This document shows, one piece after another, positions 835 to 28,699 of a DNA stretch of 34,345 bases. Made by a program: the position numbers and the translations under genes. The notes under the pieces are model-generated. The model searched no databases. It was not told the DNA's origin and saw only the letters and a program-made list of their open reading frames with translations. The DNA lies in the NCBI GenBank assembly GCA_046596735.1, contig JBKJLP010000260.1:1-34345 (forward strand), given 5' to 3'. How positions within the stretch are numbered: the first letter of the stretch is position 1; each line of letters opens with the position of its first letter. The stretch is from Mycobacteriales bacterium (GTDB lineage: Bacteria; Actinomycetota; Actinomycetes; Mycobacteriales; SCTD01).

Positions 835-2610
835 GTGAAGCGCCTTCTCGTCCTGACCGCCGTCCTTGCCGTCGGGCTGCCCTTCGGTTCGCACGCCCTG
901 GCGTCTCCCCAGATCGCTCCTGGCGACGGTGAGGGCGTTCCGTCGCTGACCGCCGAGGTGGTCGACACCGGAGTCGCGCTCAGCTGGGAGAGCATCGCCC
1001 GGGGCAACGCGCACCTGGACGAGCCGCTCCAGGTCGTCCGCGACGGTGCCGTGATCGCGGACGTGGAGCACGTAGCCACGTCGTACGAAGACCGGTCCGC
1101 TCGGCCGGGCACGACCCACTCCTATCAGGTGGTGCGCACCGACAAGAAGGGCGTTGCGTCGTCCGTCAGGGTCACGACCCCGGAGTACCTCGTGGGGGCG
1201 GCGACGCGTGACATCACCCCCGACGGCATCGTCAACCTGGGTGGGTTCGGACTCGGCAACGGCACAGTGATCCCCAACGCGATCGTGGGACGCGGCGGTC
1301 GCGGGGAGACCAAGGGCGAACGCATCAAGGTCCGGGCCATGGTCGTCGACGACGGCACGACTGCCGCCGCGGTCGCCGACCTGGAGCTGCAGGGCTACTT
1401 CGCGGCCTATCAGAAGGGGCCCGGCCTCCAGGACATCGCTGCGGCCATTGCTCGCGAGGTACCACGGCTGCCGGTGGGCAACATCGTGCTGGCCAGCGAC
1501 CACAGCCACAGCGCCCCCGACACCCTCGGCGTGTGGGGCGGTCCGCAGGCCGGCTACCTCGAGTTCATCAAGCAGCAGGTCGTGGAGGCGGTCACCGACG
1601 CCTACTCCCAGCGCGGCTTCGCGTCCCTCGCCGCCGGGCACTCCGACGCCTCCGATCTGGTCTACAACCAGTCCTGCACTGAGGGCCTCAACCAGAGCAA
1701 GAAGGCCGACTACCCCGGCCCCGACGTCTGCGCGACGCCGGGCAAGGACGGGATGGTCCGCGTCGTTCAGGCCACCACGCCGAGCGGCCGTCATCCCCTG
1801 ACCTACATGGTCTTTGCCGCGCACGCGACCGCCGGCGGTGGCAACGGTCTGCACGGCGATTGGCCGCAGTTCTTGTCCGAGGCGATGACCGCTCGCTACG
1901 GCGGCGTCGGCCTGGCCATGGTCGGCGCCCTGGGCGGGACCCAGCCGTGCCGGACGGCCTGCGCGTTCACCAAGTCGACCAACCCGGGATACAACGTCAG
2001 CGATCGCAAGACAGCGATCGTCCTCAACTATGGCGCCCATGTCGAGGCGGCGCTGAGCACGGCGAAGCCGGTGCACGGTCCGGTGCGCGCCGCGCAGGGG
2101 TTCATTCGCGAGGCCATCACCGGACCGGCGGTGACCGCGCTGTTTACCGCGGGCAAATACGCCGGCGCCGAACTGCTGCGGAACCACGACGCCCCCTGGG
2201 TCAACGGCCCGACGATCCGTACGGTCGTTGTCGTTGTCCGCATCGGCGACGTCGTCCTCGCGGCGACCCCCGGCGAGGGTTTCCCGCGGATCCGGCAGGA
2301 CATCGCCGACGCCCTCGGCAGCGGCGCCCAGGAAGTCATGACCCTCGGGTTGGCCAACGACCAGCTGGGATACCTGATCTCGCCGGCTGCCTACGTGCCG
2401 ATCATCGCCGCGGAGGTGCCGGTCAACGACAACATCATCTTCAACGTCTCAGCCACGATCGGGGACCACGTGGCCTGCGCCAACATTCGCCTGGCCGGCA
2501 CCCTGGGCCTCAAAGTCGTCACGCCGGTGACCTGTGCGCCGTACGGCGTCCAAGACGGCCAGGGCGACCCCATCGGTGCCGTCCCGGTCGGCGGGCTCGT
2601 CCTGCCCTAA
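835..2610 (+). CDS. Secreted hydrolase, neutral/alkaline ceramidase-like, with an N-terminal FN3-like module
   Basis: GTG at 835 has GGAG 4 nt upstream. The signal peptide is MKRLLVLTAVLAVGLPFGSHALA. An FN3-like stretch (LTAEVVDTGVALSWE...HSYQVVRTD) follows. Then come AATRDITPDG..., IKVRAMVVDDG and LASDHSHSAPDT, which resemble the N-terminal and Zn-site motifs of non-lysosomal ceramidases. The family assignment is from memory of motifs only. Confidence 0.55.
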   Translation: MKRLLVLTAVLAVGLPFGSHALASPQIAPGDGEGVPSLTAEVVDTGVALSWESIARGNAHLDEPLQVVRDGAVIADVEHVATSYEDRSARPGTTHSYQVVRTDKKGVASSVRVTTPEYLVGAATRDITPDGIVNLGGFGLGNGTVIPNAIVGRGGRGETKGERIKVRAMVVDDGTTAAAVADLELQGYFAAYQKGPGLQDIAAAIAREVPRLPVGNIVLASDHSHSAPDTLGVWGGPQAGYLEFIKQQVVEAVTDAYSQRGFASLAAGHSDASDLVYNQSCTEGLNQSKKADYPGPDVCATPGKDGMVRVVQATTPSGRHPLTYMVFAAHATAGGGNGLHGDWPQFLSEAMTARYGGVGLAMVGALGGTQPCRTACAFTKSTNPGYNVSDRKTAIVLNYGAHVEAALSTAKPVHGPVRAAQGFIREAITGPAVTALFTAGKYAGAELLRNHDAPWVNGPTIRTVVVVVRIGDVVLAATPGEGFPRIRQDIADALGSGAQEVMTLGLANDQLGYLISPAAYVPIIAAEVPVNDNIIFNVSATIGDHVACANIRLAGTLGLKVVTPVTCAPYGVQDGQGDPIGAVPVGGLVLP

Positions 2611-2616
2611 GCCTCG

Positions 2617-2901
2617 CTAGTCGGAGCGGAACTCGACCTGCTCGATCTCGATGCGGACCTCCTGGATGCGGACCATCACGCGCTCGCGCAGGTCGACAGG
2701 AAGCGGGTCACCGCCACAGCAGCGGGCGACCAGCGCCTTCACGTCGTTTTCCAGGCCGTACTGCCGAAGGCAGGGCGCGCACTCATCGAGGTGGATCCGG
2801 ATGTGGCCGTGCGCGTGGGCGTCATCCTCGCCGTCGAGGTAGAGGTAGACGTTTTCCAGCACCTCGCTGCACGGCGTGGCGTGCGGATCTCCGCAACTCA
2901 C
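2617..2901 (-). CDS. rshA: Anti-sigma factor RsrA/RshA (zinc/thiol redox-sensing, ZAS family)
   Basis: The protein [25 protein letters not shown]...[32 protein letters not shown] aligns closely with Streptomyces RsrA, including the H-x3-C-x2-C ZAS motif and the CC pair. Its GTG start overlaps the sigH stop in a GTGA junction. Confidence 0.92.
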
Positions 2902-3515
2902 GAGTCGACCCCCGCATCGACGCCGGTCTTGACCAGACCACGCTCGACGGCGTAGTCGGCGAGCAAAACCTTGAGCCCGCGGCGGCCGCGGTGCAGCCGG
3001 CTCATCACGGTGCCGATCGGCGTCCCCATGATCTCAGCGATTTCCTTGTACGAGAACCCCTCGACATCGGCGAGGTAGACCGCCATGCGGAAGTCCTCGG
3101 GGAGCTGCTGCAGGGCGTCCTTGACGTCGCTATCCGGCAGGTGATCGAGCGCTTCCATCTCGGCGCTGCGCAGGCCCGTGCTCTGGTGCGCCTCCGCCGA
3201 CGCGAGCTGCCAGTCCGTGATCTCGTCGGTCGGCGAGGTCAGCGGCTGGCGCTGCTTCTTGCGGTAGTTGTTGATGAACGTGTTGGTCAGGATGCGATAA
3301 AGCCAGGCCTTGAGGTTGGTCCCCTCCTGGAACTGGTGGAACGCCGCAAACGCCTTGACGAACGTCTCCTGGACCAGGTCCTCGGCGTCCGCGGGGTTGC
3401 GCGTCATCCGCATCCCGGCCGCGTAGAGCTGGTCGAGGAAGGGCAGCGCGTCGCGCTCGAACCGCGCGCTGCGCTGCTCGCTGGTCTCGGTCTCGACCGT
3501 GCTCACCTCCGCCAT
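2898..3515 (-). CDS. sigH: ECF RNA polymerase sigma factor SigH/SigR
   Basis: Region 2 ([20 protein letters not shown]...[20 protein letters not shown]) and region 4 ([39 protein letters not shown]) are typical of SigH/SigR. ATG at 3515 has GGAG 5 nt upstream. The ORF stays open upstream to an ATG at 3647, giving a possible longer isoform (see findings). Confidence 0.9.
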
Positions 3516-3696
3516 GCCTGCTCCGACGACAGCGGGCCGACGGAGGGTCGAGTCTACCCGGGTACGACCACCCGGGCCTCCGGGAGCCGGGCGCCGGACA
3601 GCCTTCGCCACCGGGGAAGCGGCGCCGGTCGCGCATACGGCGGGCATCGGGCCTCCCTGTCACTGCACGGCCCCGGTGGCCGCTCGTGTCCGACAC

Positions 3697-3724
3697 AACA
3701 CAGGACTGCAGGCCAGCGATTCCC
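3697..3724 (-). promoter_or_regulatory. Candidate SigH/SigR-dependent (autoregulated) promoter
   Basis: The minus strand reads GGGAATC-N17-TGTTG. GGGAAT is the complement of 3724-3719 and GTT is the complement of 3699-3697. This fits the GGAAT-N18/19-GTT type consensus reported for SigR/SigH promoters. It lies about 180 nt upstream of the 3515 ATG and about 45 nt upstream of the 3647 ATG. Confidence 0.5.
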
Positions 3725-3763
3725 GCTCCGCTCACCCGAGCGCCACCCACGTACGCTGGCGAG

Positions 3764-4423
3764 GTGGACGGCCACCACCCCGCAGTCGAGCAATACCTCG
3801 AGACAATTCTCGAACTCGAAGAGTCCGGCATCGTCCCGTTGCGGGCCCGGATCGTGGAACGGCTGGGGGTCTCGGCACCGGCGGTGAGCGAGACGGTCAA
3901 GCGGCTTGAGCGCGAGGGCTACCTCACCCTCGACGATGAGCGCGTCATGCACCTGACCGACACGGGCCGCGCCTACGCGACCTCGGTGCTGCGTCGACAC
4001 CGCCTCGCCGAACTGTTGCTCGTCGACGTTCTTAAGGTGCCCTGGTCCCAGGTGCACGAGGAGGCCTGTCGGCTCGAGCACGCCATCAGCGACAACCTCG
4101 AGGCCCACCTCGTGGCACTGCTCGGCGACCCAGGGGTCTGCCCGCACGGCAACCCGATCCCCGGCTCAGCCAACCTCGTCGACCTCGGACCGCTGCAACC
4201 GCTGGGATCGGTCGCGCCGGGGGGCACCTGCATCGTCCGCCGCATCGATGAGCACCTGCAGACCCAGCTCGATCACATGCGCCACCTCGAGTCCGCCCGT
4301 GTGATGCCCGGCCAGTCCGTCCGGGTCACGTCCAGCGACGCGGGCAGCATGACGCTCGACGTGGCCGGAGCGACCGTGTCCGTGCCGGCCACGGTCGCCG
4401 CCAACGTCTACGTCAGCGTCTGA
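3764..4423 (+). CDS. DtxR/IdeR-family metal-dependent transcriptional regulator with C-terminal SH3-like (FeoA) domain
   Basis: VEQYLETILELEESGIVPLRARIVERLGVSAPAVSETVKRLEREGYL...RRHRLAELLLVDVL..VHEEACRLEH...CPHGNPIPG aligns residue-for-residue with IdeR when the GTG at 3764 is used as the start. The H79/E83/H98/C102/E105/H106 equivalents are present, and the M10 equivalent is Gln. The ORF is also open from the GTG at 3686, an alternative start. That extension has no IdeR counterpart and overlaps the candidate sigH promoter. Confidence 0.85.
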   Translation: MDGHHPAVEQYLETILELEESGIVPLRARIVERLGVSAPAVSETVKRLEREGYLTLDDERVMHLTDTGRAYATSVLRRHRLAELLLVDVLKVPWSQVHEEACRLEHAISDNLEAHLVALLGDPGVCPHGNPIPGSANLVDLGPLQPLGSVAPGGTCIVRRIDEHLQTQLDHMRHLESARVMPGQSVRVTSSDAGSMTLDVAGATVSVPATVAANVYVSV

Positions 4424-6192: not shown

Positions 6193-6233
6193 CACCCTGC
6201 TGAGCCTAGGCGGGCCTTAGGCTCAGCAGGGTG
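6193..6233. repeat. Perfect 16-bp inverted repeat (hairpin/operator candidate) in a divergent intergenic region
   Basis: CACCCTGCTGAGCCTA (6193-6208) and TAGGCTCAGCAGGGTG (6218-6233) are exact reverse complements separated by the 9-nt spacer GGCGGGCCT. The element sits between the SRAP gene start (6160, -) and the GNAT ORF. Its right arm covers the first candidate GTG (6231). Confidence 0.85.
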
Positions 6234-7376
6234 CCGTCCCCTGCCGTGCGTCAGAGCTGTGTGCTCACCGGTGACGACGCCCTTCGCGGGCTCACCGAGA
6301 TCGAGGGTCTCCTTGAGGAGACCGGCGCGCCGATCACCGCACGGGTGCCGTGGCTGCGCGCCTGGGCCGGCGCGACGCAAGACCTTCCGGTGCTCGTCGT
6401 GGCGCACGCCGGTGGCAGGCCGACGGCCGCTGCACCCCTAGCCATGCGGCGTCGCGGGCCGGTGAGGGAGGTCCTGGCCTGGGGCCATCAGGACAGCGAT
6501 CGGGTCTCTCTTCCGGCTCGGACGCCGGCCGATGCTGGCGAGCTGGCCCGGGCCCTCCACGCCTATCTGCGCGGCCTGCGCCGACCCTGGACCCTGCGCG
6601 TGGAGCAGTTGCCGGTGGCCGATGGTGCCGGCCTCGCCTTGGCCCGCACGCTTCCCCGGGCCGCACTGAGCGAGGGCGACGTCAGCCCACGGACGGTTTT
6701 CGGTCCCGAGCGCACGCTCGCCCAGCACCTGAGCCGCAACGGTCGCCGCAGTGCCCTCCAGGCGGGCAACCGGCTGGCCGCGGCCTCGCTCGACCCGCAG
6801 GTCGGCTACTGGCGTAGCCCCGACGACGTCCGGCGGCACCTGGCTGACCTGGAAGGGTTGCGCCGTCGACGCGACCATGCGCTCGGCCGACCCAGCGCCA
6901 TGGACGACCCCGCCCGGCGGGAGTTCTACCGCACCGTCGTCCTCGGCGCTGCCGCTACCGGCGAGCTCGAGCTGGCCACCCTGCACGTCGACGGGCGCCT
7001 GGCGGCGTACGACGTCTGCTTCATCGACCACGGCTGGCTCCGGCTGTGGGACGGCCGGATCGAACCGGACCTGGCCCACTACGGCGTGGGCAAGCTGCTG
7101 GACGCTCGGGTACTGGAGCGAGCACTCGCCGATCCCACTCTGCTGGGTGTGGACTGGATGCGCGGCGACGAGCCGTACAAAAGTCGCTCGGCCAACGAAC
7201 GGGTCGCGCACGAACACCTGCACGCGTCGTCGTCCGCCGCGGCGTGGGCGGTCTCGTTCGGCGGTCGCGCGCTGCGCAGCGCCGCCCGCGCCCGAGCCGC
7301 GGAGCATCCTGCCGTCCTGGAGCACTGGCGCAAAGCGAAGACTCGGGCTCTGGAGTTGCGCCGCGGGGCTGGCTGA
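6231..7376 (+). CDS. GNAT-fold acyl/aminoacyl transferase, CelD/BioF2/FemAB-like (Acetyltransf_6 type)
   Basis: The C-terminal half contains HVDGRLAAYDVCF..., VGKLLD... and VDWMRGDEPYKSR, typical of CelD/BcsL-like GNAT proteins found in polysaccharide loci. The start is uncertain. GTG 6231 lies inside the inverted repeat, and in-frame GTGs at 6246 and 6261 are alternatives. Confidence 0.65.
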   Translation: MPSPAVRQSCVLTGDDALRGLTEIEGLLEETGAPITARVPWLRAWAGATQDLPVLVVAHAGGRPTAAAPLAMRRRGPVREVLAWGHQDSDRVSLPARTPADAGELARALHAYLRGLRRPWTLRVEQLPVADGAGLALARTLPRAALSEGDVSPRTVFGPERTLAQHLSRNGRRSALQAGNRLAAASLDPQVGYWRSPDDVRRHLADLEGLRRRRDHALGRPSAMDDPARREFYRTVVLGAAATGELELATLHVDGRLAAYDVCFIDHGWLRLWDGRIEPDLAHYGVGKLLDARVLERALADPTLLGVDWMRGDEPYKSRSANERVAHEHLHASSSAAAWAVSFGGRALRSAARARAAEHPAVLEHWRKAKTRALELRRGAG

Positions 7377-7389
7377 GCGACAGCTCAGC
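7372..7389. terminator. Short hairpin spanning both stop codons of a convergent gene pair
   Basis: GCTGAGC-GACA-GCTCAGC is a 7-bp perfect stem with a 4-nt loop. The left arm contains the TGA of the GNAT gene (7374-7376). The right arm contains the complement of the TGA of the deacetylase gene (7385-7387). There is no U-tract, so terminator function is uncertain. Confidence 0.3.
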
Positions 7390-8146
7390 GCACCGATCCG
7401 AGTAGCGAGTGCGCCGCCCGCCGGACCGGCCCGAGCCGACCCACGGAGGCGTAGCCGACAGACCAGGCGCGGCTGAGCTTGAGCCGGAAAGTGCGGTCGG
7501 TCTCCGTGGCATTGACGTCCGTACGCCGGATGGCGTAGCGCCCGTGCGGGTCGTGCACCGCAAAGCCCGCCTCGTAGCCGGCGTCGCGCACGGCGTCGCG
7601 AGCACGCGCATCGTGGTGGCCTGAGGCATAAGCGAACGCGCGCGGCGGCGCTCCGAGCAGCTCACCGAGCGCGTCCCGGGTGGCGTGGACCTGCTGCTGT
7701 AGCGCCGCCGGGGACAGCCCGGGCAACAACGTGTGATCCCAACCGTGCGCCTCGACGCCGACACCGCCGGCGACGAGCTCCCGCAGGCCCTGCGCCCCGA
7801 GCAGTGGTTCGTCAGGCATCTCCGGCATCCACCCGGATCGCCCGTCCAGCCGACCGGGGAGTGCGAACAGCGTCGCGGGCAAGCTGCGCTGGCGCAGTTC
7901 GGGCAGAGCCAGCTCCAAGGTGTTGACGTAGCCATCATCGATCGTCAGCAGCAGGCTCTTGCGCTTCCATGAGCCGCGGCCCAGCCCGGTGAGGTAATCG
8001 TCCATCGTGAGCGGCGCGAAACCCAGCCGTAGGACGGTGTCGAGTTGTCGCCCGAAATCGTCGGGGGCGACAAACAGCCGGTGCGGGTCGGTGGCGTCGT
8101 CGCGGGCCCCGAAGGCGTGGTACATCAAGATCAGCGGTCGGTTCAC
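7385..8146 (-). CDS. Polysaccharide deacetylase (NodB homology domain)
   Basis: Motifs are LLLTIDDGY (the TFDDG-type motif 1), ATLFAL and EAHGWDHT (the H-x3-H motif 2). The GTG start at 8146 forms a GTGA overlap with the stop of the upstream co-polymerase gene. The longer ORF to 8386 would run through that gene. Confidence 0.85.
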   Translation of the reverse strand: MNRPLILMYHAFGARDDATDPHRLFVAPDDFGRQLDTVLRLGFAPLTMDDYLTGLGRGSWKRKSLLLTIDDGYVNTLELALPELRQRSLPATLFALPGRLDGRSGWMPEMPDEPLLGAQGLRELVAGGVGVEAHGWDHTLLPGLSPAALQQQVHATRDALGELLGAPPRAFAYASGHHDARARDAVRDAGYEAGFAVHDPHGRYAIRRTDVNATETDRTFRLKLSRAWSVGYASVGRLGPVRRAAHSLLGSVR

Positions 8147-9552
8147 AGGTCGTTCTCCACGAGCGACGGCCGTTGATAGCCCGACGCGCGCGAGGGCGCC
8201 CTCCCGCCATTGAGGACTGTCCCCACCAAACGCAGTTGTAGCGCCGCCACGACCGAGACGGCGTCGGTGACCTCCTGCAGCGCGGTCCCCACGGCCACGA
8301 CGAGCAGCACCCCCTGTGCCATCGCCACGACGCTCCGCGCGTCCTCGTCCTGCAGCGGGGGGCAGTCCAGCACGACGAGGTCGCACTGCTCACGGAGGCG
8401 CTCGAGCAGGTCAGGCAGCATCCGACGCATCTCGGCGACGTCGGCCGGTCGGACGTCGGTGGGCAGCACCCGCACCCCGTCCACCGGACCCTCGTGCAAA
8501 CTGCGCTCGAGCTGACCGGTGCCGCGCAACGCCAGGGCCATCGCGGGAGGCTCGAACGGCCCCAGCGCCAGCGTGAGCCCAGCCCGCTGCGTGTCAGCGT
8601 CCAGCAAGACCACCCGCTTACCAGCGCGGGCCGCGGCGGCGCCCAGCGCGGTCGACAGGGTCGTCTTGCCGTTGCTGGTCGCCGGGGAGGTCACGGCAAG
8701 CGACCGCAGCGGAGCCTCGAGGTCAGCCCGCTCGAGCTGCAGCCAGGCGGCCCGCACGGCTGGCCCCAGCAGCGGATCGCTGACTTCCACGGTCTCGCCC
8801 CGGGACAACTGGGACGAGGCCGGCAACCGGCCGAGCACCGGCACTCCAGCGGCCCGCTCGAGGTCCGCTGGAGTGAGGATGCGCGGGCGCAGGCGCTCAC
8901 GGGTCAAGGCGACGGCCACGCCGGTCAGCACGGCCGCGAGGAGACCGGCGATCTCCAGCAGGCGGCGCGGCGGCCCGGACGGTGAGTCGGACGGGAGGGC
9001 GCGAGCCACAATTTGCGCCTCGAGCAACTCGTCGGCACGGGCGTAAACCAGCGCGGCATCACCGAAGGCATTAGCCACTTGGGCAGCCTGGCGGCTCGAC
9101 CCCAACGTGACGGTGACCGTCAGGTTGGCGGTGTCGGTCTGGATGGACGCGTCCGACGAGCGCGACAGTGTGCTGTCGTCCACGCCCGTCGCGGCGGTGA
9201 CGCGGGCCAGGGTGCTGGGCGCGGCCAAGAACGCGACGTAACGGGGCAGGACCAGCCGAATGACGTCGGCACCGACCGACGACCCCAACCGCGGCGTAAA
9301 CGACAGCGTCGTCTCGGCGGTGTAGACGGCCGGCCGGGACTCGGCGTAGACGGCGACACCCAGGAAGACCGGCACGGACACCAGCAGCAGCAGGGCCAGG
9401 TTGCGTCGAAGGCCCGCGGCCACCGCGGCCAAGCCATGCTCCTCGGTGCTCAGCTCGACTCCGGCGGGGCTCAGGGACAGGGCGCTCCGGCGGAGACGCA
9501 GGCGGAGCATATCGCCCGAGGGGGCTCGCGGCAGCGGGTTCGCGCGAGACAC
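8143..9552 (-). CDS. Polysaccharide co-polymerase (Wzz domain) fused to a BY-kinase-like P-loop ATPase
   Basis: Two TM segments (LALLLLVSVPVFLGVAVYA and LLEIAGLLAAVLTGVAVAL) flank a periplasmic-type domain. The C-terminal domain has Walker A-like SPATSNGKTT, Walker A' VVLLDADTQR and Walker B DLVVLDCPP. The start is uncertain. I favour GTG 9552 (GGAG 10 nt upstream). ATG 9510 and GTG 9591 are in frame, but the codons in 9553-9591 are A/T-ending and look non-coding. Confidence 0.8.
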   Translation of the reverse strand: MSRANPLPRAPSGDMLRLRLRRSALSLSPAGVELSTEEHGLAAVAAGLRRNLALLLLVSVPVFLGVAVYAESRPAVYTAETTLSFTPRLGSSVGADVIRLVLPRYVAFLAAPSTLARVTAATGVDDSTLSRSSDASIQTDTANLTVTVTLGSSRQAAQVANAFGDAALVYARADELLEAQIVARALPSDSPSGPPRRLLEIAGLLAAVLTGVAVALTRERLRPRILTPADLERAAGVPVLGRLPASSQLSRGETVEVSDPLLGPAVRAAWLQLERADLEAPLRSLAVTSPATSNGKTTLSTALGAAAARAGKRVVLLDADTQRAGLTLALGPFEPPAMALALRGTGQLERSLHEGPVDGVRVLPTDVRPADVAEMRRMLPDLLERLREQCDLVVLDCPPLQDEDARSVVAMAQGVLLVVAVGTALQEVTDAVSVVAALQLRLVGTVLNGGRAPSRASGYQRPSLVENDL

Positions 9553-9655
9553 GGCATTCACGCTCCGTAAGGCACAATTACTCTCTGTCACCCGTTTGGG
9601 CCATCCAGCGGTGGGCTCAAACGACGAACCTCTCTATGTCAACCCGTTCACTCGG

Positions 9656-9745
9656 GGTCGTTCGACAAGGGCAAACCCGCCGCGAGGCGGGGACGCAAAG
9701 CCACGGGACTCCTGTTGGGAGTTAGCCGGGTCACCGAAGACGACC
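9656..9745 (+). promoter_or_regulatory. c-di-GMP-I (GEMM-I) riboswitch aptamer
   Basis: The RNA reads GGUCGUUCGACAAGGGCAAACC-CGCC-GCGA-GGCG-GGGACGCAAAGCCACGGGACUCCUGUUGGGAGUUAGCCGGGUCACCGAAGACGACC. The blocks GGCAAACC, a GNRA-capped stem, GGGACGCAAAGCC, and UAGCCGGGUCACCGAAG match the Vc2 aptamer as I remember it (..ACAGGGCAAACCAUUCGAAAGAGUGGGACGCAAAGCCUCCGG...GUAGCGGGGUUACCGAUGG). The outer stem pairs GGUCGU/UCG (9656-9664) with CGA/ACGACC (9735-9745). The element lies in the 5' leader of the + strand hydrolase gene. Confidence 0.78.
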
Positions 9746-9777
9746 GGTCCTGAGCCAGCCCTCTGGGAGCCAGGACC
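9746..9777 (+). promoter_or_regulatory. Candidate riboswitch expression platform (hairpin that sequesters the RBS)
   Basis: GGUCCUG (9746-9752) pairs perfectly with CAGGACC (9771-9777). An inner CCAG/CUGG pairing is also possible. The hairpin encloses the GGGAG Shine-Dalgarno (9765-9769) and ends 1 nt before the GTG start at 9778. Confidence 0.45.
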
Positions 9778-11136
9778 GTGACCGTCCGTCGCCAGCTTCG
9801 TCGTAGCCTGACAGTGCTCTCCCTCGCCACTGCCCTGCTCGGAACGGGAGCCGTCGTGGCCACCTCCGCCTCCGCCGCCACCCCGGCCGGTCGTCCGCAG
9901 GTCGGCGTGCAGTTCAAGGGCATGTGGTCGGACTACACCGACACCCAGCGCGCCGCTGTGCTCGACAAGATGGCCGCCGCGAAGCTGGACACGGTCCGCA
10001 TCGACGTCAGCTGGGCGATGCTCCAGCCGACCGGCCCGGACAGCTACGACGCGTGGGGCGTCGGGTTCGTCGACAAGGTCATCACGATGGCGAACAGCCG
10101 TGGACTGACCCCCCTGATCACGCTCTGGATGTCACCCTCATGGGCCAACGGCGGTCGCAGTGACCGCACCCTGCCGAACAACCCGGCGGACTACGCCCGG
10201 GCCGCCCAGTGGGCCGCTGCCAAGTGGGCCGGCAAGGTGGGCGCCTGGGAAGTCTGGAACGAGCCCAACAGCAACGACTTCATGGTCGGTGCGAGCCCCA
10301 CCGCCTACGCCAACCTGCTCAAGGCCGCGTACCCCGCCTTCAAGGCCGGCGACCCGAACGCCACCGTCGTCTCCGGCGGCACGATGTACGTCGACACCGA
10401 CTGGATCGCCAAGATGTACGCCGCCGGCGCTGGTGGCAGCTTCGACGCCATCGCCGTCCACCCCTACATGGGCGTCGCCGACCTGGCCCCCGAGACCGCC
10501 GATGACGGCACCCAGTGGACGCTGGCCCACGTCTCCGCACTGCACGACCTGATGGTCTCCAAGGGCGACGGTGCCAAGTCGATCTGGCTGACCGAAATGG
10601 GCTGGAGCACGCACGCCACCGCCGCGGGCGCCCCCAACTGGGAGCGCGGCGTCAGCGAGGCGGTCCAGGCCGACTTCACGGTCCGTTCGATCGCCTTCAC
10701 GGCCAGCAAGCTCCCGTGGGTCTCCCACATGTTCTTCTACACCGAGCGCGACCAGGTCGACAGCCACATCCAGGACAACAACTACGGCCTGCTGCGCCGC
10801 GACCTGAGCCCCAAGCCGGTCTACACGGCCCTCGCCGCCCACCTCGCTGGCAGCAGCACGACGGCCCCGGCTCCCGCACCGCTGCCGGTCATCCCGCCGG
10901 CCGCCCCGGTCAGCAGCACCACGACGACCACGACGGCCACGACGGCTCCCGCCGAGCAGGTCGCCACTCCTGAGGTGCGCCGCACCCTGCGGATCAGCAC
11001 CAAGCCGCGCCGGGCGCAGGCCAAGCTCGCCGCGATCCAAGCCGCGACAGTCACCGCGCCGGTCGTCGGTCCGGCCTTGCGCCGCTACCCGCTGTCGTTC
11101 ATCGGCCCGCTCGCCCTCGGCGCGGTTCGGGTCTGA
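9778..11136 (+). CDS. Secreted clan GH-A (TIM-barrel) glycoside hydrolase, PslG/GH39- or GH5-like
   Basis: The signal peptide is MTVRRQLRRSLTVLSLATALLGTGAVVATSASA. Motifs are VRIDVSWAMLQP, WEVWNEPN (acid/base Glu) and WLTEMGWST (nucleophile Glu). The C terminus carries a Pro/Thr-rich linker (SSTTTTTTATTAP) and a basic/hydrophobic tail. The exact GH family cannot be decided by eye. Confidence 0.75.
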   Translation: MTVRRQLRRSLTVLSLATALLGTGAVVATSASAATPAGRPQVGVQFKGMWSDYTDTQRAAVLDKMAAAKLDTVRIDVSWAMLQPTGPDSYDAWGVGFVDKVITMANSRGLTPLITLWMSPSWANGGRSDRTLPNNPADYARAAQWAAAKWAGKVGAWEVWNEPNSNDFMVGASPTAYANLLKAAYPAFKAGDPNATVVSGGTMYVDTDWIAKMYAAGAGGSFDAIAVHPYMGVADLAPETADDGTQWTLAHVSALHDLMVSKGDGAKSIWLTEMGWSTHATAAGAPNWERGVSEAVQADFTVRSIAFTASKLPWVSHMFFYTERDQVDSHIQDNNYGLLRRDLSPKPVYTALAAHLAGSSTTAPAPAPLPVIPPAAPVSSTTTTTTATTAPAEQVATPEVRRTLRISTKPRRAQAKLAAIQAATVTAPVVGPALRRYPLSFIGPLALGAVRV

Positions 11137-11140
11137 CCGG

Positions 11141-12607
11141 TCAGGTCGACTCCAGGGCCGCGGCCGCCGGGTCAGGTCGGACAACGCTCAGTGCCAGCGC
11201 CAGCCCGACGAGGAACCACAGCAACGTCGCGATGAGGGCGCTCAGCAAGGTCACGTCGAACAGGCCCTGACCGACGAACGTCGCCAGCGCCGCCCCGACT
11301 CCGGCAGCCAGGCTCCCGTCGACCTCGTTGAGTCGCCGCGCGGCACGGAGCGCGGCGAAGCCCAGCGACAGGGTGAAGCCGAAGACCAGCACCACACCCG
11401 GTCCGCCAAGCTCGGCAGCCACGTGCAGCGGAAGGTCGTGCGCGTGCAACGCTGAGACGGTCCGCGCCCGCGAGGCGAGCCGGGACGAGACGTAAGGGAA
11501 CGCCCCCGGCCCTTGACCGAGCCACGGCGAGTCACGGAACTCGCGCAGGGCCTCGCCCCAGATGGTCGTGCGGTCGTCGTACGGGTTCTTGTCGGCACTG
11601 CCGATGCTCGTGAACCGCTCGCCCACGATCTGCAGCTCGCTGGCTGCCGGGGTGAGCGTCGCCGCGACGACAAGGGCGAGCAGCAATGGGGGGGCCAGCC
11701 GCACCAGCGCCCGGCGTGCGCGGCGCTGCAGAATCAGCAGTGCCAGGAACCCGGCGATGCAGCCGATCCACGCACCGCGCGAGAGCGACAGGCCCACTTG
11801 GAGCAGCGCCAGCGCACCCACAGCCCCCGCGGCCCAGCGCCCCCGGGCCGTGCGCGCGCCTAACCCCGCACCGATGGCCAGCAGCAGCACCGCCGCCGCA
11901 AATGAGCCGGCCTGATTGTGCTCGGTGAACAAGCCCTTGGAACCGCTGACGTTGGTCGCCCCCGCAGATGCGGACACCGTTCCCGAGACGACGAGCCCGA
12001 GCGCGCAGACGGCGCCGCCCGCGGCGAGCGCGGCCGCCACGAGGCGGCGCACGTCGGTGATGCGCCGGCACGCGCCGACGACGGCTAACGCGAGGAGCAG
12101 CCCGACGATGACGCTGGCGTCGCGCCGCAGGGCGATCTGCAGCTCAGGCGCCCGCGAGGTCGACAGCAGCATCTGCAGGATCAAGCCCATGGCCCACCAG
12201 GCGGGCGGCGGGAACGGCAGCGGACCCACGCCGCGGTTGAGCCGAGTCAGGACCACCACGCCCGCAGCGAGCAGCGCGGCGGCCTGTACCAGCGAAAGCA
12301 GACCGCCCGCGACCGAGTGATCGCCGGCGGCGATGCTCAGCGGCACCGCCGCCACCGCGATCACCGGCTGGCGCAGCGCCACGGCAACGAGGATCACCAG
12401 CGCCGGCAGCGCGACGACCAGGATCGGGCTACCTGCCGTGCCCACGGCACCCAGAAGCACGCCGAGCCCGGCTGAGACGAGCAGGATGAGCAGCACCAAC
12501 AGCGGTGTGGGGAGTCGGCTGACCGCGGCGACGAGCCGGGAACTCCCCCACTCGACCTCGCGCTCATCCGCGGCGATCACCGGCGGGCGGAAGGGCGTCG
12601 AGGTCAT
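11141..12607 (-). CDS. O-antigen ligase/polymerase-like membrane protein (Wzy_C domain)
   Basis: It is polytopic with more than 10 hydrophobic segments. It has the characteristic LSLSRGAWIG loop motif. The ATGA junction at 12604-12607 couples it to the upstream glycosyltransferase gene. Confidence 0.75.
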   Translation of the reverse strand: MTSTPFRPPVIAADEREVEWGSSRLVAAVSRLPTPLLVLLILLVSAGLGVLLGAVGTAGSPILVVALPALVILVAVALRQPVIAVAAVPLSIAAGDHSVAGGLLSLVQAAALLAAGVVVLTRLNRGVGPLPFPPPAWWAMGLILQMLLSTSRAPELQIALRRDASVIVGLLLALAVVGACRRITDVRRLVAAALAAGGAVCALGLVVSGTVSASAGATNVSGSKGLFTEHNQAGSFAAAVLLLAIGAGLGARTARGRWAAGAVGALALLQVGLSLSRGAWIGCIAGFLALLILQRRARRALVRLAPPLLLALVVAATLTPAASELQIVGERFTSIGSADKNPYDDRTTIWGEALREFRDSPWLGQGPGAFPYVSSRLASRARTVSALHAHDLPLHVAAELGGPGVVLVFGFTLSLGFAALRAARRLNEVDGSLAAGVGAALATFVGQGLFDVTLLSALIATLLWFLVGLALALSVVRPDPAAAALEST

Positions 12608-14715
12608 CGCGCCGACCGGCGCCGCTCGATCACGCCGAGCAGGCAGCCATAGGCCTTGGCGAGGTCCTTCACGCCGAGCACGACCGGGACCAGGGCAGCG
12701 GTCCGGACCGGCTGCGGCTGGCGGACGGCCTTAGCAACCGGGAGCGAGAGGTAGGCGGCGGCCCCGAACGCCACGGCGGCGCGGCTGCGCGAGCCACCCG
12801 CCAGGACGAGCAGCGGCGCTACGGCCGCAGCCGCGCCGCGGACGGCGTTGCGGGCGACGACCACACGCTCACCGTAGAGCCCGTCGCCACGTCCGTAGCT
12901 GCGGTACATCCTGGCCGTGGCGACCAGCGTCGCGTGGTGCTTCCAGATGGCGGGGCTGTCGGTCTGCAGGACGCAGCGGCCACCGGACTCGGCGATCGCG
13001 CGCCCGAAGGCGATGTCCTCTCCTGCCCGCAGGTGCTCGGGGAATCCGCCGACGCGTTCCCAGGCCGTACGCCGGAAGGCCACCGAGCGGCCGGCCGGGC
13101 GGGTGGCGTCGAACGAGCGGCCAAAGAGCCGCGCGTACCAGCGAGCGACCGGCCCTGGGTGGCGGGTGTCGCCGAGATCCGGGTAGAGCGCGACGGCCAT
13201 CGCTGCCTCGACCGGCGTGTCCCGGGTGACCTCGTAGGCCCCCATCACCAGATCGGGCGCGGGGTCGTCGGCCAGCGCCGTTCGCATCGCGTCCAGCCAA
13301 CCGGGCGGCAGGTCGTTACCCGCATCCGTGCAGACGACAAGCGGGTAGCGGGCCGGGGTGATGCCGGCGTTGCGCGCCGCAGAGGCGCCGCCATTGATCG
13401 CCAGAGCATGGACCGTGAGCCGTGGCTCCTGCCCCGCGAGGGCAGCCAGGAGCGCGGCGGTTCCATCGCCGGAGGCGTCGTCGACCACGACGAGCTCGTC
13501 GTCCGGGCCGAGCTGCTCGCGCAGCTGCTGGAGCAGCGCCTCGACGGTCTGCTCCTCGTTGAAGACGGGTACGACCACGCTCACCGGCGGCTGCCCCACG
13601 TCGCGGCCGGCCCCCGGTCGGCGGGCGGCAGCGCTCAGAACGCCAGCGAGCCGGTCCGCACTGGCGTGCGCGCTCGGATGCATCGCGACCAGTGCGCGGC
13701 AGGCGGCCGAGGCTGCGGCATGCACGGCCGGCTCAGCGAGGCGGCCCAACGCCGCGGCGATCTGCCCGGGAGCAGCGGCGTCAACGACCTCCCCGGCTCG
13801 GCCGGCCAGCCGGCGGGCCACCGGACCACCGCCGGTCGTGACGACCGGCACGCCCGCTGCCATCGCCTCCAGGGCGGTCATGCCGAAGCCCTCTCCGAGC
13901 GGGTCGCCCGCGCGCCCGGGCTTGGTCAGCACCGCGAGCGCGTCGAAGGCGCCCACCAGCCGCGAGGCGCCGGGCAGGTAGCCGCCCAGCTGCACCCGGT
14001 CGCGCACGCCGGCGCCGGACGCCAGCGCCTCCAGCCGGGTTCGTTCGCCGGGGTGGGCAGGATCGTCGCCGCCGAGCACGACGAGATGCCAGCGTTCGCC
14101 ACCGGGAAGCGACAGCGCCGCGATGGCGTCATCGACGCCCTTGTAGCCGACCAGCCTGGTCACCATGGCGAGCACCGGTCCGTCCGGGCGTGACAGGCCA
14201 GCCTCGACGAGGGCGGCCCAGGCACCGTCGCGAGGTAGCGCCGCCGGCGGGAGCGGCGGCTCGATCACGACGCCGTCGTCGCGACCGGTCGCCACCAGGA
14301 CCTCCTGCGACGGCCCGATCACCGCGTCAGCGGCGCGGGCCAGTCGACCGACCGCGCCCTCGAAGGCGTGATCGTGGCGGGCGAACACCAACGGGACTCC
14401 GGCGAGCCTGGCCGCGGGCGCCGCGACGAACTGCGCCTTCACGCCGTTGGCCAGCACCACGTCCGGCCGCAGTCGGCGCAACTGGCGGGCCAGCGCGAGG
14501 GCGGGCAGCACCAGGTCCACCGGGCGGGTGCCGACCTCGAGTACGTCAACGGGAATCCCGAGCTCGCTCAGTCGATCGCGCAGCGGGCCGTCCTGCAGCA
14601 GTAGTGCCCGCACCTCCAGCCGACCGGTGGCGCCGAGCAGCTGCAGCAGCCACTCCTCCTGCCCACCCACCACGGCGTGCGGCGCGATGACGAGCACGTC
14701 CAACCGTCGACTCAC
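12604..14715 (-). CDS. Bifunctional glycosyltransferase: GT4 (GT-B) N-terminal domain fused to GT2 (GT-A) domain plus C-terminal TM segments
   Basis: The N-terminal part has LDVLVIAPHAVVGGQEEW and EGFGMTALEAMAAGVPVV (an EX7E-type GT4 motif). The C-terminal part has VSVVVPVFNEEQTVEALL, VVVDDASGDGT and TDAGND (GT2 motifs), followed by hydrophobic helices. GTG 14715 forms a GTGA overlap with the flippase stop. Confidence 0.8.
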   Translation of the reverse strand: MSRRLDVLVIAPHAVVGGQEEWLLQLLGATGRLEVRALLLQDGPLRDRLSELGIPVDVLEVGTRPVDLVLPALALARQLRRLRPDVVLANGVKAQFVAAPAARLAGVPLVFARHDHAFEGAVGRLARAADAVIGPSQEVLVATGRDDGVVIEPPLPPAALPRDGAWAALVEAGLSRPDGPVLAMVTRLVGYKGVDDAIAALSLPGGERWHLVVLGGDDPAHPGERTRLEALASGAGVRDRVQLGGYLPGASRLVGAFDALAVLTKPGRAGDPLGEGFGMTALEAMAAGVPVVTTGGGPVARRLAGRAGEVVDAAAPGQIAAALGRLAEPAVHAAASAACRALVAMHPSAHASADRLAGVLSAAARRPGAGRDVGQPPVSVVVPVFNEEQTVEALLQQLREQLGPDDELVVVDDASGDGTAALLAALAGQEPRLTVHALAINGGASAARNAGITPARYPLVVCTDAGNDLPPGWLDAMRTALADDPAPDLVMGAYEVTRDTPVEAAMAVALYPDLGDTRHPGPVARWYARLFGRSFDATRPAGRSVAFRRTAWERVGGFPEHLRAGEDIAFGRAIAESGGRCVLQTDSPAIWKHHATLVATARMYRSYGRGDGLYGERVVVARNAVRGAAAAVAPLLVLAGGSRSRAAVAFGAAAYLSLPVAKAVRQPQPVRTAALVPVVLGVKDLAKAYGCLLGVIERRRSAR

Positions 14716-16211
14716 GGCCGGCGGGCCAGGGTCCGCACCAGCCGCAGTTGCTCCGGGAACAGCCACCGGGCCAGCAGCACCCAGGTCGCCAGGTAGACCA
14801 GCCCTCCGACAGCGCATTCGACCAGCACCGGCAGGTGCATCAGCAGCATCGCCGCGATCAGCGGCGGCAGCGCGAGCAGCGGTAGCCGCAGTGCGCGATC
14901 GACCCGCAGGTAGCCCATCGTGGGGCCGGCCAGCAGGATCGCCAGGAACCCCTCAGCGGCGTAGGACACGGTCGTCGCTATGGCCGCCCCGGGGCCCCCG
15001 TACAGCGGGATCACGACGAGGTTGAGCGCGATGTTGAGCCCAGCGCCGCCAAGTGTCGACAGCAGCACAGCTCGGTTGCGCTTGCGTGCGGTCAGCGCCT
15101 CGCTGGCCAGATAACTCAGGGCGAACGCGAGCGGGGCAGCGGCCAGCAGCCGCAGGGTGAGCGCGCTCTGCCCGGAGTATTCGGCGCCGAACAGCAGCTG
15201 CAGGAGCCGGGGACCTTCGATGATCAACAGTGCGCCGTACGGGACGAAGACCGTCGCGACTGCCGACAGCCCCTGCTCGGCCAGCGCCACGGCCTCGCTG
15301 TCCTTGAGCGCCCGACTCATCGCCGGGAAGATCGCCCGGGTGACCGCCCAGTTGACGAACAGCACCGTTTCAAGCAACCGGTAGGCGACGGCGTAGGACG
15401 CGAGTTCCTCGTCGCCGCGGATGAGGCCGAGCAGCACCGCGTCGAGGCGGAACAGCGCCATCGCGACAAGCGTGTCGATGCCCAGGACGAACGACGACCG
15501 CCACATCAGCCGCAGTTGCGGCCCGGTGACCGCCGACCAGTCCGGCCGAATCTGCAGGATGCGCAGCGCCCGCCAGGTCAGCACCTGCCCGAACACACTC
15601 GCGACGAGGTAGACGACCGCCACCGAGACGAGCCCCGAACCGCTGCCGAGCAGGGCGATGGCGAGCACGGCGGTCGAGAGCCGCTGGGCAATGAGCGCCA
15701 CGGACGTCCGGCCGCGCTTCTCCAAAGCGCCAGCCGCAGACCGCCCGGCGTCGCCGTACGTGTCGAGAACGGTCGCGAGCAGGATCAGCAGCAGGGCGAC
15801 GGAGGCCTCGGTCGAAGGGCGACTCAGTGCCCCCAGCCCGCCGCCCAGCAGCAGGACCGGCACGGCGAGGATGGAGCGCAGCGCAAGGGTCTGCGCCAGC
15901 GCAGCCCCGAGGTCGTTGGGGTCCGCGCTCCCCCGGCGGATGAGGACGCTGTCAAAGCCCCAGGCGGGCAGCGTGGCCAGCAGCATGCTGAAGGCCAGGG
16001 CGTACGAGAACGCGCCGAATCCGGCGGCTCCTAGGCTGCGAGCCGCCACGATGGTGAAGACCAGGGTGGCGACCTTGCCGGCCAGTTCGGCGCCCGCGAC
16101 GATGGCCACGTTGCGCGCCGCTCGTGACCCTGCGTCCCCCTCAGGGACACTGGGTGACGAGTCGCCGGGAGAACGCGTCTTCCGGGCCACGACATGATGT
16201 TCCCACGACAT
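14712..16211 (-). CDS. Polysaccharide flippase (Wzx, MOP superfamily)
   Basis: The roughly 500 aa protein has 12 or more TM helices. The N-terminal NVAIVAGAELAGKVATLVFTIVAARSLGAAGFGAFSYA is typical of Wzx/PST family members. I take the start at ATG 16211. The ORF extension to 16352 would overlap the divergent kinase gene. Confidence 0.75.
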   Translation of the reverse strand: MSWEHHVVARKTRSPGDSSPSVPEGDAGSRAARNVAIVAGAELAGKVATLVFTIVAARSLGAAGFGAFSYALAFSMLLATLPAWGFDSVLIRRGSADPNDLGAALAQTLALRSILAVPVLLLGGGLGALSRPSTEASVALLLILLATVLDTYGDAGRSAAGALEKRGRTSVALIAQRLSTAVLAIALLGSGSGLVSVAVVYLVASVFGQVLTWRALRILQIRPDWSAVTGPQLRLMWRSSFVLGIDTLVAMALFRLDAVLLGLIRGDEELASYAVAYRLLETVLFVNWAVTRAIFPAMSRALKDSEAVALAEQGLSAVATVFVPYGALLIIEGPRLLQLLFGAEYSGQSALTLRLLAAAPLAFALSYLASEALTARKRNRAVLLSTLGGAGLNIALNLVVIPLYGGPGAAIATTVSYAAEGFLAILLAGPTMGYLRVDRALRLPLLALPPLIAAMLLMHLPVLVECAVGGLVYLATWVLLARWLFPEQLRLVRTLARRP

Positions 16212-16248
16212 CCGCTGAACCCGCTGCGCAACGGAGAGGTGCCCCGAC

Positions 16249-17094
16249 GTGTCCCACCAGGCGCGGGCTGCCCTGGCGGCGGCGCTCGCAGACGCCACAG
16301 CAGCGGCCGGTGAGCCGCTACACCCCCAAAGCCGCGGGGCGTGGCAGGCCAATCAGGTGGCGATCGGCGCGAGCGTGGTGGCCTACCTCGGCGCAAACGA
16401 GCAGTCTCGCGCCCGGATCCGCTCCGAACGGTTGCGGTTGGCGTGGGCCGCCGCTGCCGACGTCCCGGTGCCCGCCGTACGCGCTCAGGCTGACGACGAC
16501 GCGTGGCTGCTGGTGCAGCGGGTCCCCGACGACGAGGTCTACGGACCGGCGTACGTCGATGCGGCCGCCGCCGCAGCCACGGCCTTGCGCACGGCTGGCG
16601 ATCCGCCGCCTGACGCCGGGCTGGCCCGATCCCGGCGGGCGCGCCGCAGCGACCTGGTGCCCAGGCTGGCCCGCGCCGCGCTCAGCCCGTTGCGGATCGC
16701 TGAATTTCGCGCGCTGCGCGCCGAAGTGGCCGCTCTGCCCGAGGATCGATTCGTCACCAGCCACGGGGATTTTCACCTCGGCAACGTCCTGTCGGACACG
16801 GGCCGCCGCGTATCCGTCGTCGACTTCGAGTTCCTCGGCCGAGGTCACCCCGCCGACGACCTCATGTCACTGTGGGTGGACCTGGTAGACCCGGCTGACC
16901 GCCAGCGGCTGTTGCGCCTGGCCTGCGACACCGTGGACGTCCCGCGTGCCGAGGTGCTGCTCTTCGCGCACTGGCTGGCCGTACGCCACCTCGCCGAGCT
17001 GGTGACCGGGGTGCCTCTGCTGCGCCGTGATCGACCGGAAGTGCGGGTGGCGGTCACGCGGGTCACTGAGGCGCGCGCGCTTCGCGGCGGGTGA
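16249..17094 (+). CDS. Phosphotransferase-family kinase (APH/choline-kinase fold)
   Basis: SHGDFHLGNVL (HGD-x4-N catalytic loop) is followed by VVDFEF (the metal-binding Asp). The size is about 280 aa. The substrate is unknown. Confidence 0.7.
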   Translation: MSHQARAALAAALADATAAAGEPLHPQSRGAWQANQVAIGASVVAYLGANEQSRARIRSERLRLAWAAAADVPVPAVRAQADDDAWLLVQRVPDDEVYGPAYVDAAAAAATALRTAGDPPPDAGLARSRRARRSDLVPRLARAALSPLRIAEFRALRAEVAALPEDRFVTSHGDFHLGNVLSDTGRRVSVVDFEFLGRGHPADDLMSLWVDLVDPADRQRLLRLACDTVDVPRAEVLLFAHWLAVRHLAELVTGVPLLRRDRPEVRVAVTRVTEARALRGG

Positions 17095-28695: not shown

Positions 28696-28699
28696 CCGA

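Follow-up and report, generated by a model that had tools for sequence, protein, structure and literature searches.

What would a riboswitch for cyclic di-GMP (c-di-GMP) do inside an exopolysaccharide locus of a high-G+C actinobacterium, in front of an enzyme that would cut the matrix? The question is raised by a 34,345-nt stretch of DNA from a Mycobacteriales bacterium (contig JBKJLP010000260.1; G+C content 70.5%), here called the window, in which an RNA element of the GEMM-I (c-di-GMP-I) type precedes a gene for a PslG-like glycoside hydrolase. The RNA at 9656-9745 very probably forms a functional GEMM-I aptamer with a canonical G20/A47/C92 pocket (numbering of the prototype Vc2), located in the 5' untranslated region (UTR) of a monocistronic gene for the putatively secreted hydrolase. 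Its ligand would be c-di-GMP. On the models described here, we lean modestly towards an OFF switch, in which c-di-GMP would lower translation of the hydrolase.

An Rfam scan of the whole window returned a single RNA match, RF03167 (c-di-GMP-I-GGC) at 9661-9739 (+), with 70.7 bits against a gathering score of 59 (E value 5e-15; model positions 1-80 of 80). Within the same clan (CL00126), another family likewise passed its own gathering score at this aptamer in Rfam cmscan, and a permissive scan of 9500-9900 (E values up to 10) added only clan siblings. The c-di-GMP-II clan (RF01786) gave no match in 9500-9900 at E values up to 10, and none window-wide at the gathering score. Our own covariance model, R1, scored 87.4 bits over 9655-9745. 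The unconstrained minimum free energy (MFE) fold of 9650-9785 consists of helices P1, P2 and P3 and a downstream hairpin. The aptamer is made up of the following elements:

9656-9664 (+): 5' strand of P1, GGUCGUUCG, partnered by 9735-9745 in the unconstrained MFE fold
9665-9677 (+): conserved block ACAAGGGCAAACC, read from the sequence
9671-9696 (+): P2 arm from the cmscan alignment, with G9671-C9696 and C9672-G9695, then the stem 9676-9681 with 9686-9691, and tetraloop GCGA
9676-9691 (+): P2 hairpin CCCGCC-GCGA-GGCGGG, a 6-bp stem with the GNRA loop at 9682-9685
9690-9702 (+): conserved block GGGACGCAAAGCC, read from the sequence
9699-9732 (+): P3 arm from the cmscan alignment, with a lower helix (9700-9706 with 9726-9731), an upper hairpin (9707-9712 with 9718-9723) and the loop UGUUG
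9708-9722 (+): hairpin ACUCC-UGUUG-GGAGU, read from the sequence
9723-9739 (+): conserved block UAGCCGGGUCACCGAAG, read from the sequence
9735-9745 (+): 3' strand of P1, CGaaGACGACC with A9737 and A9738 bulged, from the MFE folds; invariant in seven orthologous leaders

P1 has 9 bp (9656-9664 with 9735-9745, interrupted by the two-A bulge at 9737-9738), and its core pairs C9663-G9736 and G9664-C9735 correspond to Rfam model pairs 3-77 and 4-76. The 3' end of the aptamer lies 32 nt upstream of the GUG at 9778 on the sense strand, which is a leader position. The initial annotation, made from the letters alone, had placed the three conserved blocks in this order, together with the ACUCC-GGAGU hairpin and the closing helix, and all of these are present at the coordinates it gave; comparison with Rfam bore out its assignment to c-di-GMP-I at the level of the clan. 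It was right about the GCGA loop of P2 and wrong about the length of the stem, which it put at 4 bp rather than 6.

Covariation strongly supports the predicted three-way junction of P1, P2 and P3. In a structure-blind MAFFT alignment of nine aptamers, compensatory changes were found at 10 of the 18 predicted pairs that were scored. A larger alignment of 17 aptamers, including that of the window, was fitted to the model and hence leans toward it, and the MAFFT result agrees with it. In this alignment, 98.4% of cells were paired (83.8% in shuffles and 30-46% in slid-partner controls), double changes occurred at 11 of the 18 pairs, and none of 500 shuffles matched any observed measure. Compensatory changes were seen at 4/6 pairs of the P2 stem and at 7/8 modelled pairs of P3; P1 is formed in every leader, by differing sequences. 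All 17 aptamers carry a GNRA tetraloop on P2 (GCGA, GUGA, GCAA or GAGA), and no GAAA/11-nt receptor pair is present.

The identity of the pocket bases bears on which member of the clan this RNA is. For numbering, the leader was aligned to the Vc2 sequence, with which it is collinear, and by this mapping model positions 10, 37 and 75 equal G20, A47 and C92. C92 of Vc2, whose equivalent in the window is C9734, pairs with one guanine of the ligand. The roles of the pocket bases were taken from published work, in which G20, A47 and C92 are central to c-di-GMP recognition (PMC11218506). The corresponding positions in the window are:

9670 (+): ligand-contact G equivalent to G20, model position 10; G in 15/16 related aptamers
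9697 (+): A equivalent to A47, model position 37; A in 17/17 related aptamers and G in the RF03167 consensus
9733-9734 (+): A9733 and C9734, equivalent to A91 and C92, model positions 74-75

The C92 column holds C in 15 of the 17 aptamers and U in the other two. The pocket of the window reads GAC (G9670, A9697, C9734), and the defining G of the GGC variant is not present, where "GGC" is understood, from the RF03167 consensus, as G20/G47/C92. That consensus also has a G at model position 74, at which the window has A9733. Position 9670 is a G as well and not the A20 of the GEMM-Ib subclass that binds cyclic GMP-AMP (cGAMP); the G20A change reportedly marks riboswitches for 3',3'-cGAMP (work of Kellenberger and of Nelson in 2015, both cited in PMC7266159).

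Among the relatives described below (numbered L001 onwards), RF01051 (gathering score 35) scores 40-62 bits on L082, L083, L084, L105 and L038. All of the eight relatives included in one scan reach the gathering score of a second clan family, and RF01051 is the top match in two of these eight, plus three further relatives. Judged by its pocket bases, the window RNA is an ordinary c-di-GMP-I aptamer and not a GGC variant, because an A occupies the A47 column in the window and in all 17 relatives and because sister leaders match best with RF01051. The top score of RF03167 is most likely due to a likeness between its seed and the short, GC-rich helices of actinobacteria, not to the pocket. Covariance-model score, covariation and pocket bases support a GEMM-I aptamer, and the absence of the defining G favors the plain c-di-GMP-I label of the initial annotation over the GGC label.

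A best-of-clan rule labels the window and L003, L015, L023, L089, L090, L100, L111 and L161-L165 as c-di-GMP-I-GGC, and none of them has a G at the A47 position. For automated pipelines, best-of-clan Rfam labelling is thus an annotation trap, by which canonical A47 aptamers are called GGC variants. Some relatives do vary in the pocket: L084 (1445-1541) has C in the G20 column, and L105 (1427-1519) and L082 (173-259) have U in the C92 column. These three may differ in affinity or specificity.

The gene behind the leader is the following:

9778-11136 (+): regulated hydrolase gene, 452 aa, with a signal peptide, NEP and TE catalytic motifs and a Pro/Thr-rich C-terminal tail

Its reading frame opens at 9754, so GTG 9778 and GTG 9814 are the only possible starts. 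Pfam matches are Cellulase/GH5, Glyco_hydro_cc and GH39. The nearest solved structure is PslG (PDB 4zn2/5bx9; E value 2e-24 over residues 43-368), the motifs WNEPN and LTEMGW are present, and the N-terminus is basic and then hydrophobic, as in signal peptides. The gene is thus predicted to encode a secreted PslG-like clan-A glycoside hydrolase, as the initial annotation had proposed. The 3' part (10890-11136) encodes a Pro/Thr/Ala-rich low-complexity linker, followed by a basic stretch and a hydrophobic tail. Such a C-terminus suggests an enzyme held at the envelope and not freely secreted.

A search with the hydrolase protein against reference genomes and metagenomes yielded 160 loci, which were then searched for aptamers with Rfam and with R1, a model built from nine aptamers. 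The aptamer lies on the same strand and directly upstream of the hydrolase in L003, L015, L023, L082, L083, L084, L089, L090, L100, L105 and L111. Closer orthologs (71-84% protein identity) were found in a protein database, and all six whose loci were fetched (L161-L166) have the aptamer at the same spacing; the L164 and L166 leaders are cut at the 5' end. Across these orthologs the whole leader is conserved nearly base for base. In total, 18 homologous loci share the arrangement. No aptamer was found in L167 (a 61% homolog) or in many other homologs, including L001 and L002, which are the closest in the reference-genome set (58-62% identity). As read from these leaders, the riboswitch-hydrolase association is frequent and not universal, because so many homologs are without the aptamer. 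The leaders of the aptamer-less L001, L002, L004 and L005 have no alternative motif in common.

Gene context is conserved as well. The order kinase, riboswitch-hydrolase, Wzy recurs in L161, L163, L090, L015 and L100, a Wzz/BY-kinase-like neighbor in L161, L162, L163, L167, L090 and L015, and a Wzy neighbor in L161, L163, L166, L090 and L100. The best named relatives are Frankiaceae, Mycobacteriales and metagenome-assembled genomes (MAGs) of unclassified Actinomycetota, and many homologs carry the name "polysaccharide biosynthesis protein PslG" from the Joint Genome Institute (JGI).

Some loci depart from the common arrangement. In L111, a 13-bp GC stem and GUUUAA come after the riboswitch and form a strong intrinsic terminator; the gene starts 140 nt after the aptamer and encodes an SLH-like N-terminus, and there are tandem PslG-like paralogs (1557-3382 and 3346-4206). 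The platform of L111 is predicted to be transcriptional, in a family whose platforms are mostly translational. In L081 (2280-2345), the leader of a hydrolase with 63% identity contains a decayed-looking GEMM-I (GUGCAAAC...GUGACGGACGGCC, with P2 shortened), which was matched neither by Rfam nor by our own model. In L038, from a Thermomicrobia MAG, RF01051 matches with 58.5 bits at 2509-2584 (-), about 430 nt upstream of a hydrolase homolog on the opposite strand, and hence this aptamer would control a divergent gene. Two further loci, with hydrolases 55% (L085) and 51% (L106) identical and no class-I aptamer present, have matches to RF03169 (c-di-GMP-II-GAG variant) on the other strand (L085, 573-674 (-); L106, 212-321 (-)), with about 62 bits (gathering score 40). 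The L085 match lies beyond an open reading frame (ORF) of 502 aa, which sits where the window has its BY-kinase-like gene (a likeness of position only), and is followed by a small ORF, secreted and rich in Ala/Asn. At these two loci, the neighborhood thus holds a c-di-GMP-related RNA of another kind.

How would ligand binding reach the ribosome? Between P1 and the start codon of the window lie the following elements, along with a flank 5' of P1:

9746-9777 (+): hairpin sequestering the Shine-Dalgarno sequence, GGUCCUG (9746-9752) with CAGGACC (9771-9777), the upper part being a C-rich tract with the Shine-Dalgarno sequence
9765-9769 (+): Shine-Dalgarno sequence GGGAG, 8 nt upstream of GUG, paired in all folds
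9651-9655 (+): 5' flank CUCGG, which together with 9656-9660 pairs with 9745-9754 to form a register-shifted P1 (P1'), a candidate anti-sequestor

The hairpin over GGGAG, which the initial annotation had already pointed out, starts at the base after P1, ends at the base before GUG 9778, has an MFE of -17.2 kcal/mol and is seen in all full-length states predicted. Its two arms are (nearly) invariant in seven orthologous leaders, as is the 3' strand of P1, and its loop is variable; this conservation points to a functional hairpin and to control at translation initiation. Translational control is also the predicted mode because the window has no terminator-like site in 9400-9900.

Three mutually exclusive states are predicted to compete for the same strands. 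State A consists of P1 and the 7-bp hairpin. In state B, P1 is lost and the hairpin is extended, with CGACC (9741-9745) pairing to the start-codon region. In state C, P1' is formed and the Shine-Dalgarno sequence is free. Fold energies (kcal/mol), which ignore tertiary structure, ligand and ribosome, are as follows for the window and four close orthologs:

Window: A -61.7, B -58.4, C -53.0
L161: A -62.5, B -67.7, C -58.6
L162: A -61.9, B -66.9, C -54.6
L165: A -60.0, B -66.9, C -51.2
L163: A -51.2, B -55.3, C -50.7

The ranking changes with the 3' end of the transcript. In all five orthologs, the MFE fold contains P1 when the transcript ends at 9746-9752 and P1' when it ends at 9753 to about 9776; P1 plus the hairpin follows, and once the transcript passes about 9783, the hairpin with its extension becomes the MFE. 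P1' is the MFE of 9651-9754. The CUC of the flank is kept even in L165, which has diverged further upstream, and two orthologs have A in place of G9654, opposite U9751. The P1' helix of the window by itself has a shuffle p of 0.26. Another candidate anti-sequestor, the P3 5' strand (9704-9710) paired with 9746-9752, was rejected; when enforced, it gave -53.2 vs -61.7 kcal/mol and left the Shine-Dalgarno sequence mostly still paired.

In the OFF switch that we lean towards, bound c-di-GMP would lock P1 and leave GGUCCUG free to pair with CAGGACC, which would occlude the ribosome-binding site. In the ligand-free RNA, 9651-9660 would slip onto 9745-9754 to form P1', hold the 5' arm of the hairpin and thereby expose the Shine-Dalgarno sequence transiently during mRNA synthesis, so that ribosomes could load. 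High c-di-GMP, the matrix-building state, would then mean less of the matrix-cutting enzyme, and low c-di-GMP would mean more.

The clearest pointers to this sign come from more distant relatives. In L003, L015, L089, L090 and L100, the Shine-Dalgarno sequence begins 11-18 nt after the P1 core, with 2-4 of its bases paired to the 5' continuation of P1; in L083, the P1 continuation stops just before AGGA. Once the aptamer is imposed on the fold, the ribosome-binding site costs 3 to 10 kcal/mol more to open in L003, L089 and L090; in L100 the site falls within the imposed P1, and in L015 and L083 the cost changes by about zero. The leaders with the Shine-Dalgarno sequence in P1 are OFF designs according to these folds. 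A terminator that coexists with the aptamer and shares no strand with P1 is the usual layout of an OFF switch, and in the MFE fold of L111 the terminator coexists with the aptamer and has no strand in common with P1. Among leaders with a separate hairpin (the window clade, L082, L105, L023 and L084), the downstream hairpin has a 5' arm that can pair with the 5' strand of P1 and its flank, and the resulting helix is predicted for truncated transcripts in each of these. This complementarity has shuffle p values of 0.035-0.26 individually and a Fisher combination of about 0.01 over five independent designs. We commit to OFF because orthologs in syntenic loci are expected to share the sign of their response.

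Several observations weigh against this reading. In the window clade, the ribosome-binding site is closed in both ensembles, with the hairpin in each and 12-28 kcal/mol needed to open it. In full-length leaders, P1' is less stable than the aptamer state by 0.5-9 kcal/mol and than the ground state by 5-16 kcal/mol, and would hence matter only kinetically. The ligand-free MFE fold of four close orthologs is the hairpin extended over the start codon, an ON-type arrangement. Hydrolases in exopolysaccharide loci are often co-expressed with the synthesis genes, which would fit an ON switch. No GGDEF or EAL domain was found among the larger window ORFs scanned with Pfam, smaller ORFs not being checked. 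A scan upstream of the hydrolase found no sigma-70-like promoter, and TANNNT motifs ahead of the aptamers show no consistent pattern. In the window clade, ON and OFF are not told apart by the equilibrium cost of opening the ribosome-binding site, and pairing counts in the five close orthologs do not separate P1' from the extended hairpin, since there is hardly any variation in either. Our preference for OFF is modest because the site is closed in both ensembles, P1' is never the full-length ground state and the gap between states A and B is one that the ligand could flip. The initial annotation held that ON or OFF could not be told from the sequence, and this is largely still true after modelling.

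What, then, of a translational ON switch built on the same aptamer? Here CGACC (9741-9745) would extend the hairpin in the ligand-free RNA and bury the Shine-Dalgarno sequence and GUG, and c-di-GMP would free the start codon; we regard this as possible and rather doubtful, and give similarly limited credence to its corollary that the hydrolase is made together with the polysaccharide. In L161, L162, L165 and L163, the extended state is favored over the aptamer state by 4-7 kcal/mol, a gap that ligand binding could overturn. RNAalifold also gives the extended state as the consensus of the five orthologs, and 93% of extension cells are paired. When 35 nt of coding sequence are included, enforcing the aptamer lowers the cost of opening -18 to +10 by 1-8 kcal/mol in the window clade, and the common co-expression of locus-encoded hydrolases with exopolysaccharide synthesis would suit such a switch. 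However, the 7-bp hairpin (-17 kcal/mol) still buries the Shine-Dalgarno sequence in the bound state. The extension of the window has lost two of its five pairs, and the window's MFE fold is the aptamer state to begin with; L082 shares the hairpin design without the extension. With distant relatives that carry the Shine-Dalgarno sequence in P1, an ON switch would moreover mean that orthologs respond with opposite signs although their loci are syntenic.

The remaining alternatives concern the mode of control and the nature of the RNA. Control of transcription or mRNA fate in place of direct ribosome binding (through Rho, termination at the hairpin without a U tract, or decay) is unlikely. L111 has its strong intrinsic terminator after the aptamer, and translation-coupled Rho termination commonly accompanies translational switches, but 9400-9900 of the window contains no terminator-like site, GUGACCGUCC follows directly after the hairpin with no U run, and a Shine-Dalgarno sequence inside a hairpin with GUG at its foot, kept in seven orthologs, has the look of a translational platform. 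A GGC variant with an altered binding site, and perhaps another ligand or affinity, would account for RF03167 being the top-scoring Rfam family for the window and most relatives; it is very improbable given A9697 at model position 37, where all 17 aptamers have A, A9733 at position 74, and sister leaders in the same alignment that match best with RF01051. Least probable of all is a chance resemblance or a decayed, non-functional relic. The closest reference-set homologs (L001 and L002) do lack the aptamer and the L081 copy looks decayed, yet the E value of 5e-15, the intact pocket bases, the strong compensatory changes and a leader kept almost base for base across orthologs of 71-84% protein identity make this account hard to credit.

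Around the hydrolase gene, which is the sole + strand gene within the exopolysaccharide gene block, lie:

6231-7376: GNAT-like acyltransferase
7385-8386 (-): polysaccharide deacetylase
8143-9591 (-): Wzz/BY-kinase-like P-loop protein (Pfam CbiA, AAA_31), a divergent neighbor not under the riboswitch
11141-12607 (-): Wzy-type polymerase (Pfam Wzy_C), the convergent neighbor
12604-14817 (-): GT4-GT2 fusion
14712-16352 (-): Wzx flippase
up to 21676 (-): GT4, a second deacetylase and a priming sugar transferase

Because the Wzy gene converges on the hydrolase gene, the riboswitch can control the hydrolase alone. The initial annotation had described a Wzx/Wzy locus of high G+C, and this description, at about 70% G+C, holds. 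Upstream of the aptamer, ACCCGTT occurs twice in the window (9591-9597 and 9642-9648), and CACCCGTT(T/C)GG is kept upstream of the L082 aptamer (about 105-120), where the remaining spacer has diverged; this element may be a promoter or operator. Elsewhere in the window are two long ORFs on the - strand, 25897-28926 (BPD_transp_2 permease and ABC ATPase) and 30972-33263 (MFS_1 and ABC ATPase), which may be true fusions or artefacts of longest-ORF listing that span adjacent genes.

The leader predicts that the hydrolase belongs to a c-di-GMP regulon, and it helps in giving a Wzx/Wzy cluster that is otherwise anonymous a role in the biofilm matrix. The 18 natural variants in front of one enzyme family offer platforms with the Shine-Dalgarno sequence in P1, with a separate hairpin and with a terminator. 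We propose only tentatively that, in soil Actinomycetota, c-di-GMP directly represses translation of a matrix-cleaving PslG-like hydrolase through co-transcriptional slippage between P1 and P1'. If so, the leader would be a protein-independent "build versus cut the matrix" switch inside an exopolysaccharide locus. It is also a compact entry point to RNA-based c-di-GMP signalling in Actinomycetota, although one that would not surprise specialists. We know of no c-di-GMP riboswitch from Actinomycetota that has been characterized experimentally. c-di-GMP signalling in this phylum is known mainly through protein effectors, e.g., BldD and RsiG in Streptomyces (PMC7005675).

The initial annotation called the design unusual. 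The conserved pairing with PslG-like hydrolases in Actinomycetota appears to be new, and the claim is otherwise overstated, since the riboswitch class has long been known and c-di-GMP riboswitches already known to control matrix, adhesin and motility genes provide precedent. The class, its fold and its ligand logic are already established, and nothing here changes how the class works. Riboswitch control of pslG was not found in the searchable literature, and searches for actinobacterial c-di-GMP riboswitches gave reviews only. In the literature searched, no description was found of the way this riboswitch recurs beside PslG-like hydrolase genes of actinobacterial Wzx/Wzy loci, of so varied a set of platforms for one enzyme family, or of the slip-strand arrangement of the window clade, and all three appear to be undescribed.

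Among known systems, the closest in architecture is the c-di-GMP-I prototype Vc2 of Vibrio cholerae (RF01051), with which the window shares the three-helix junction, the blocks GGCAAACC and GACGCAAAGCC, a GNRA tetraloop on P2, the G20/A47/C92 pocket, a location in the 5' UTR and a downstream gene tied to a sessile lifestyle. Unlike Vc2, the window RNA comes from a high-GC actinobacterium, has a short P3, an unusually long P1 (9 bp) and GCGA rather than GAAA as its tetraloop, uses a separate Shine-Dalgarno hairpin abutting P1 as its platform, and is scored higher by RF03167. RF03167 is its best covariance-model match and resembles it in overall helix lengths and GC-rich stems; the two differ at model positions 37 and 74, where the window has A and the family consensus G. 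With translational OFF riboswitches, the relatives L003, L015, L089, L090 and L100 share Shine-Dalgarno bases within the 3' continuation of P1, and a ligand-stabilized aptamer compatible with an inhibitory helix is a further likeness. Cd1 of Clostridioides difficile is a c-di-GMP OFF switch (PMC10118264). It acts by termination, whereas the window would act by predicted masking of the Shine-Dalgarno sequence. The window clade also differs from known OFF switches in its extra hairpin and its predicted register-slipping P1', and equilibrium energetics alone give no switching. The hydrolase itself resembles PslG of Pseudomonas aeruginosa, a GH39-like endoglycosidase of the psl locus, in its NEP and TE motifs, in being putatively secreted or anchored and in being encoded inside an exopolysaccharide locus; unlike pslG, its gene has a presumed promoter and a leader of its own, lies on the strand opposite to its neighbors and belongs to an actinobacterial Wzx/Wzy locus.

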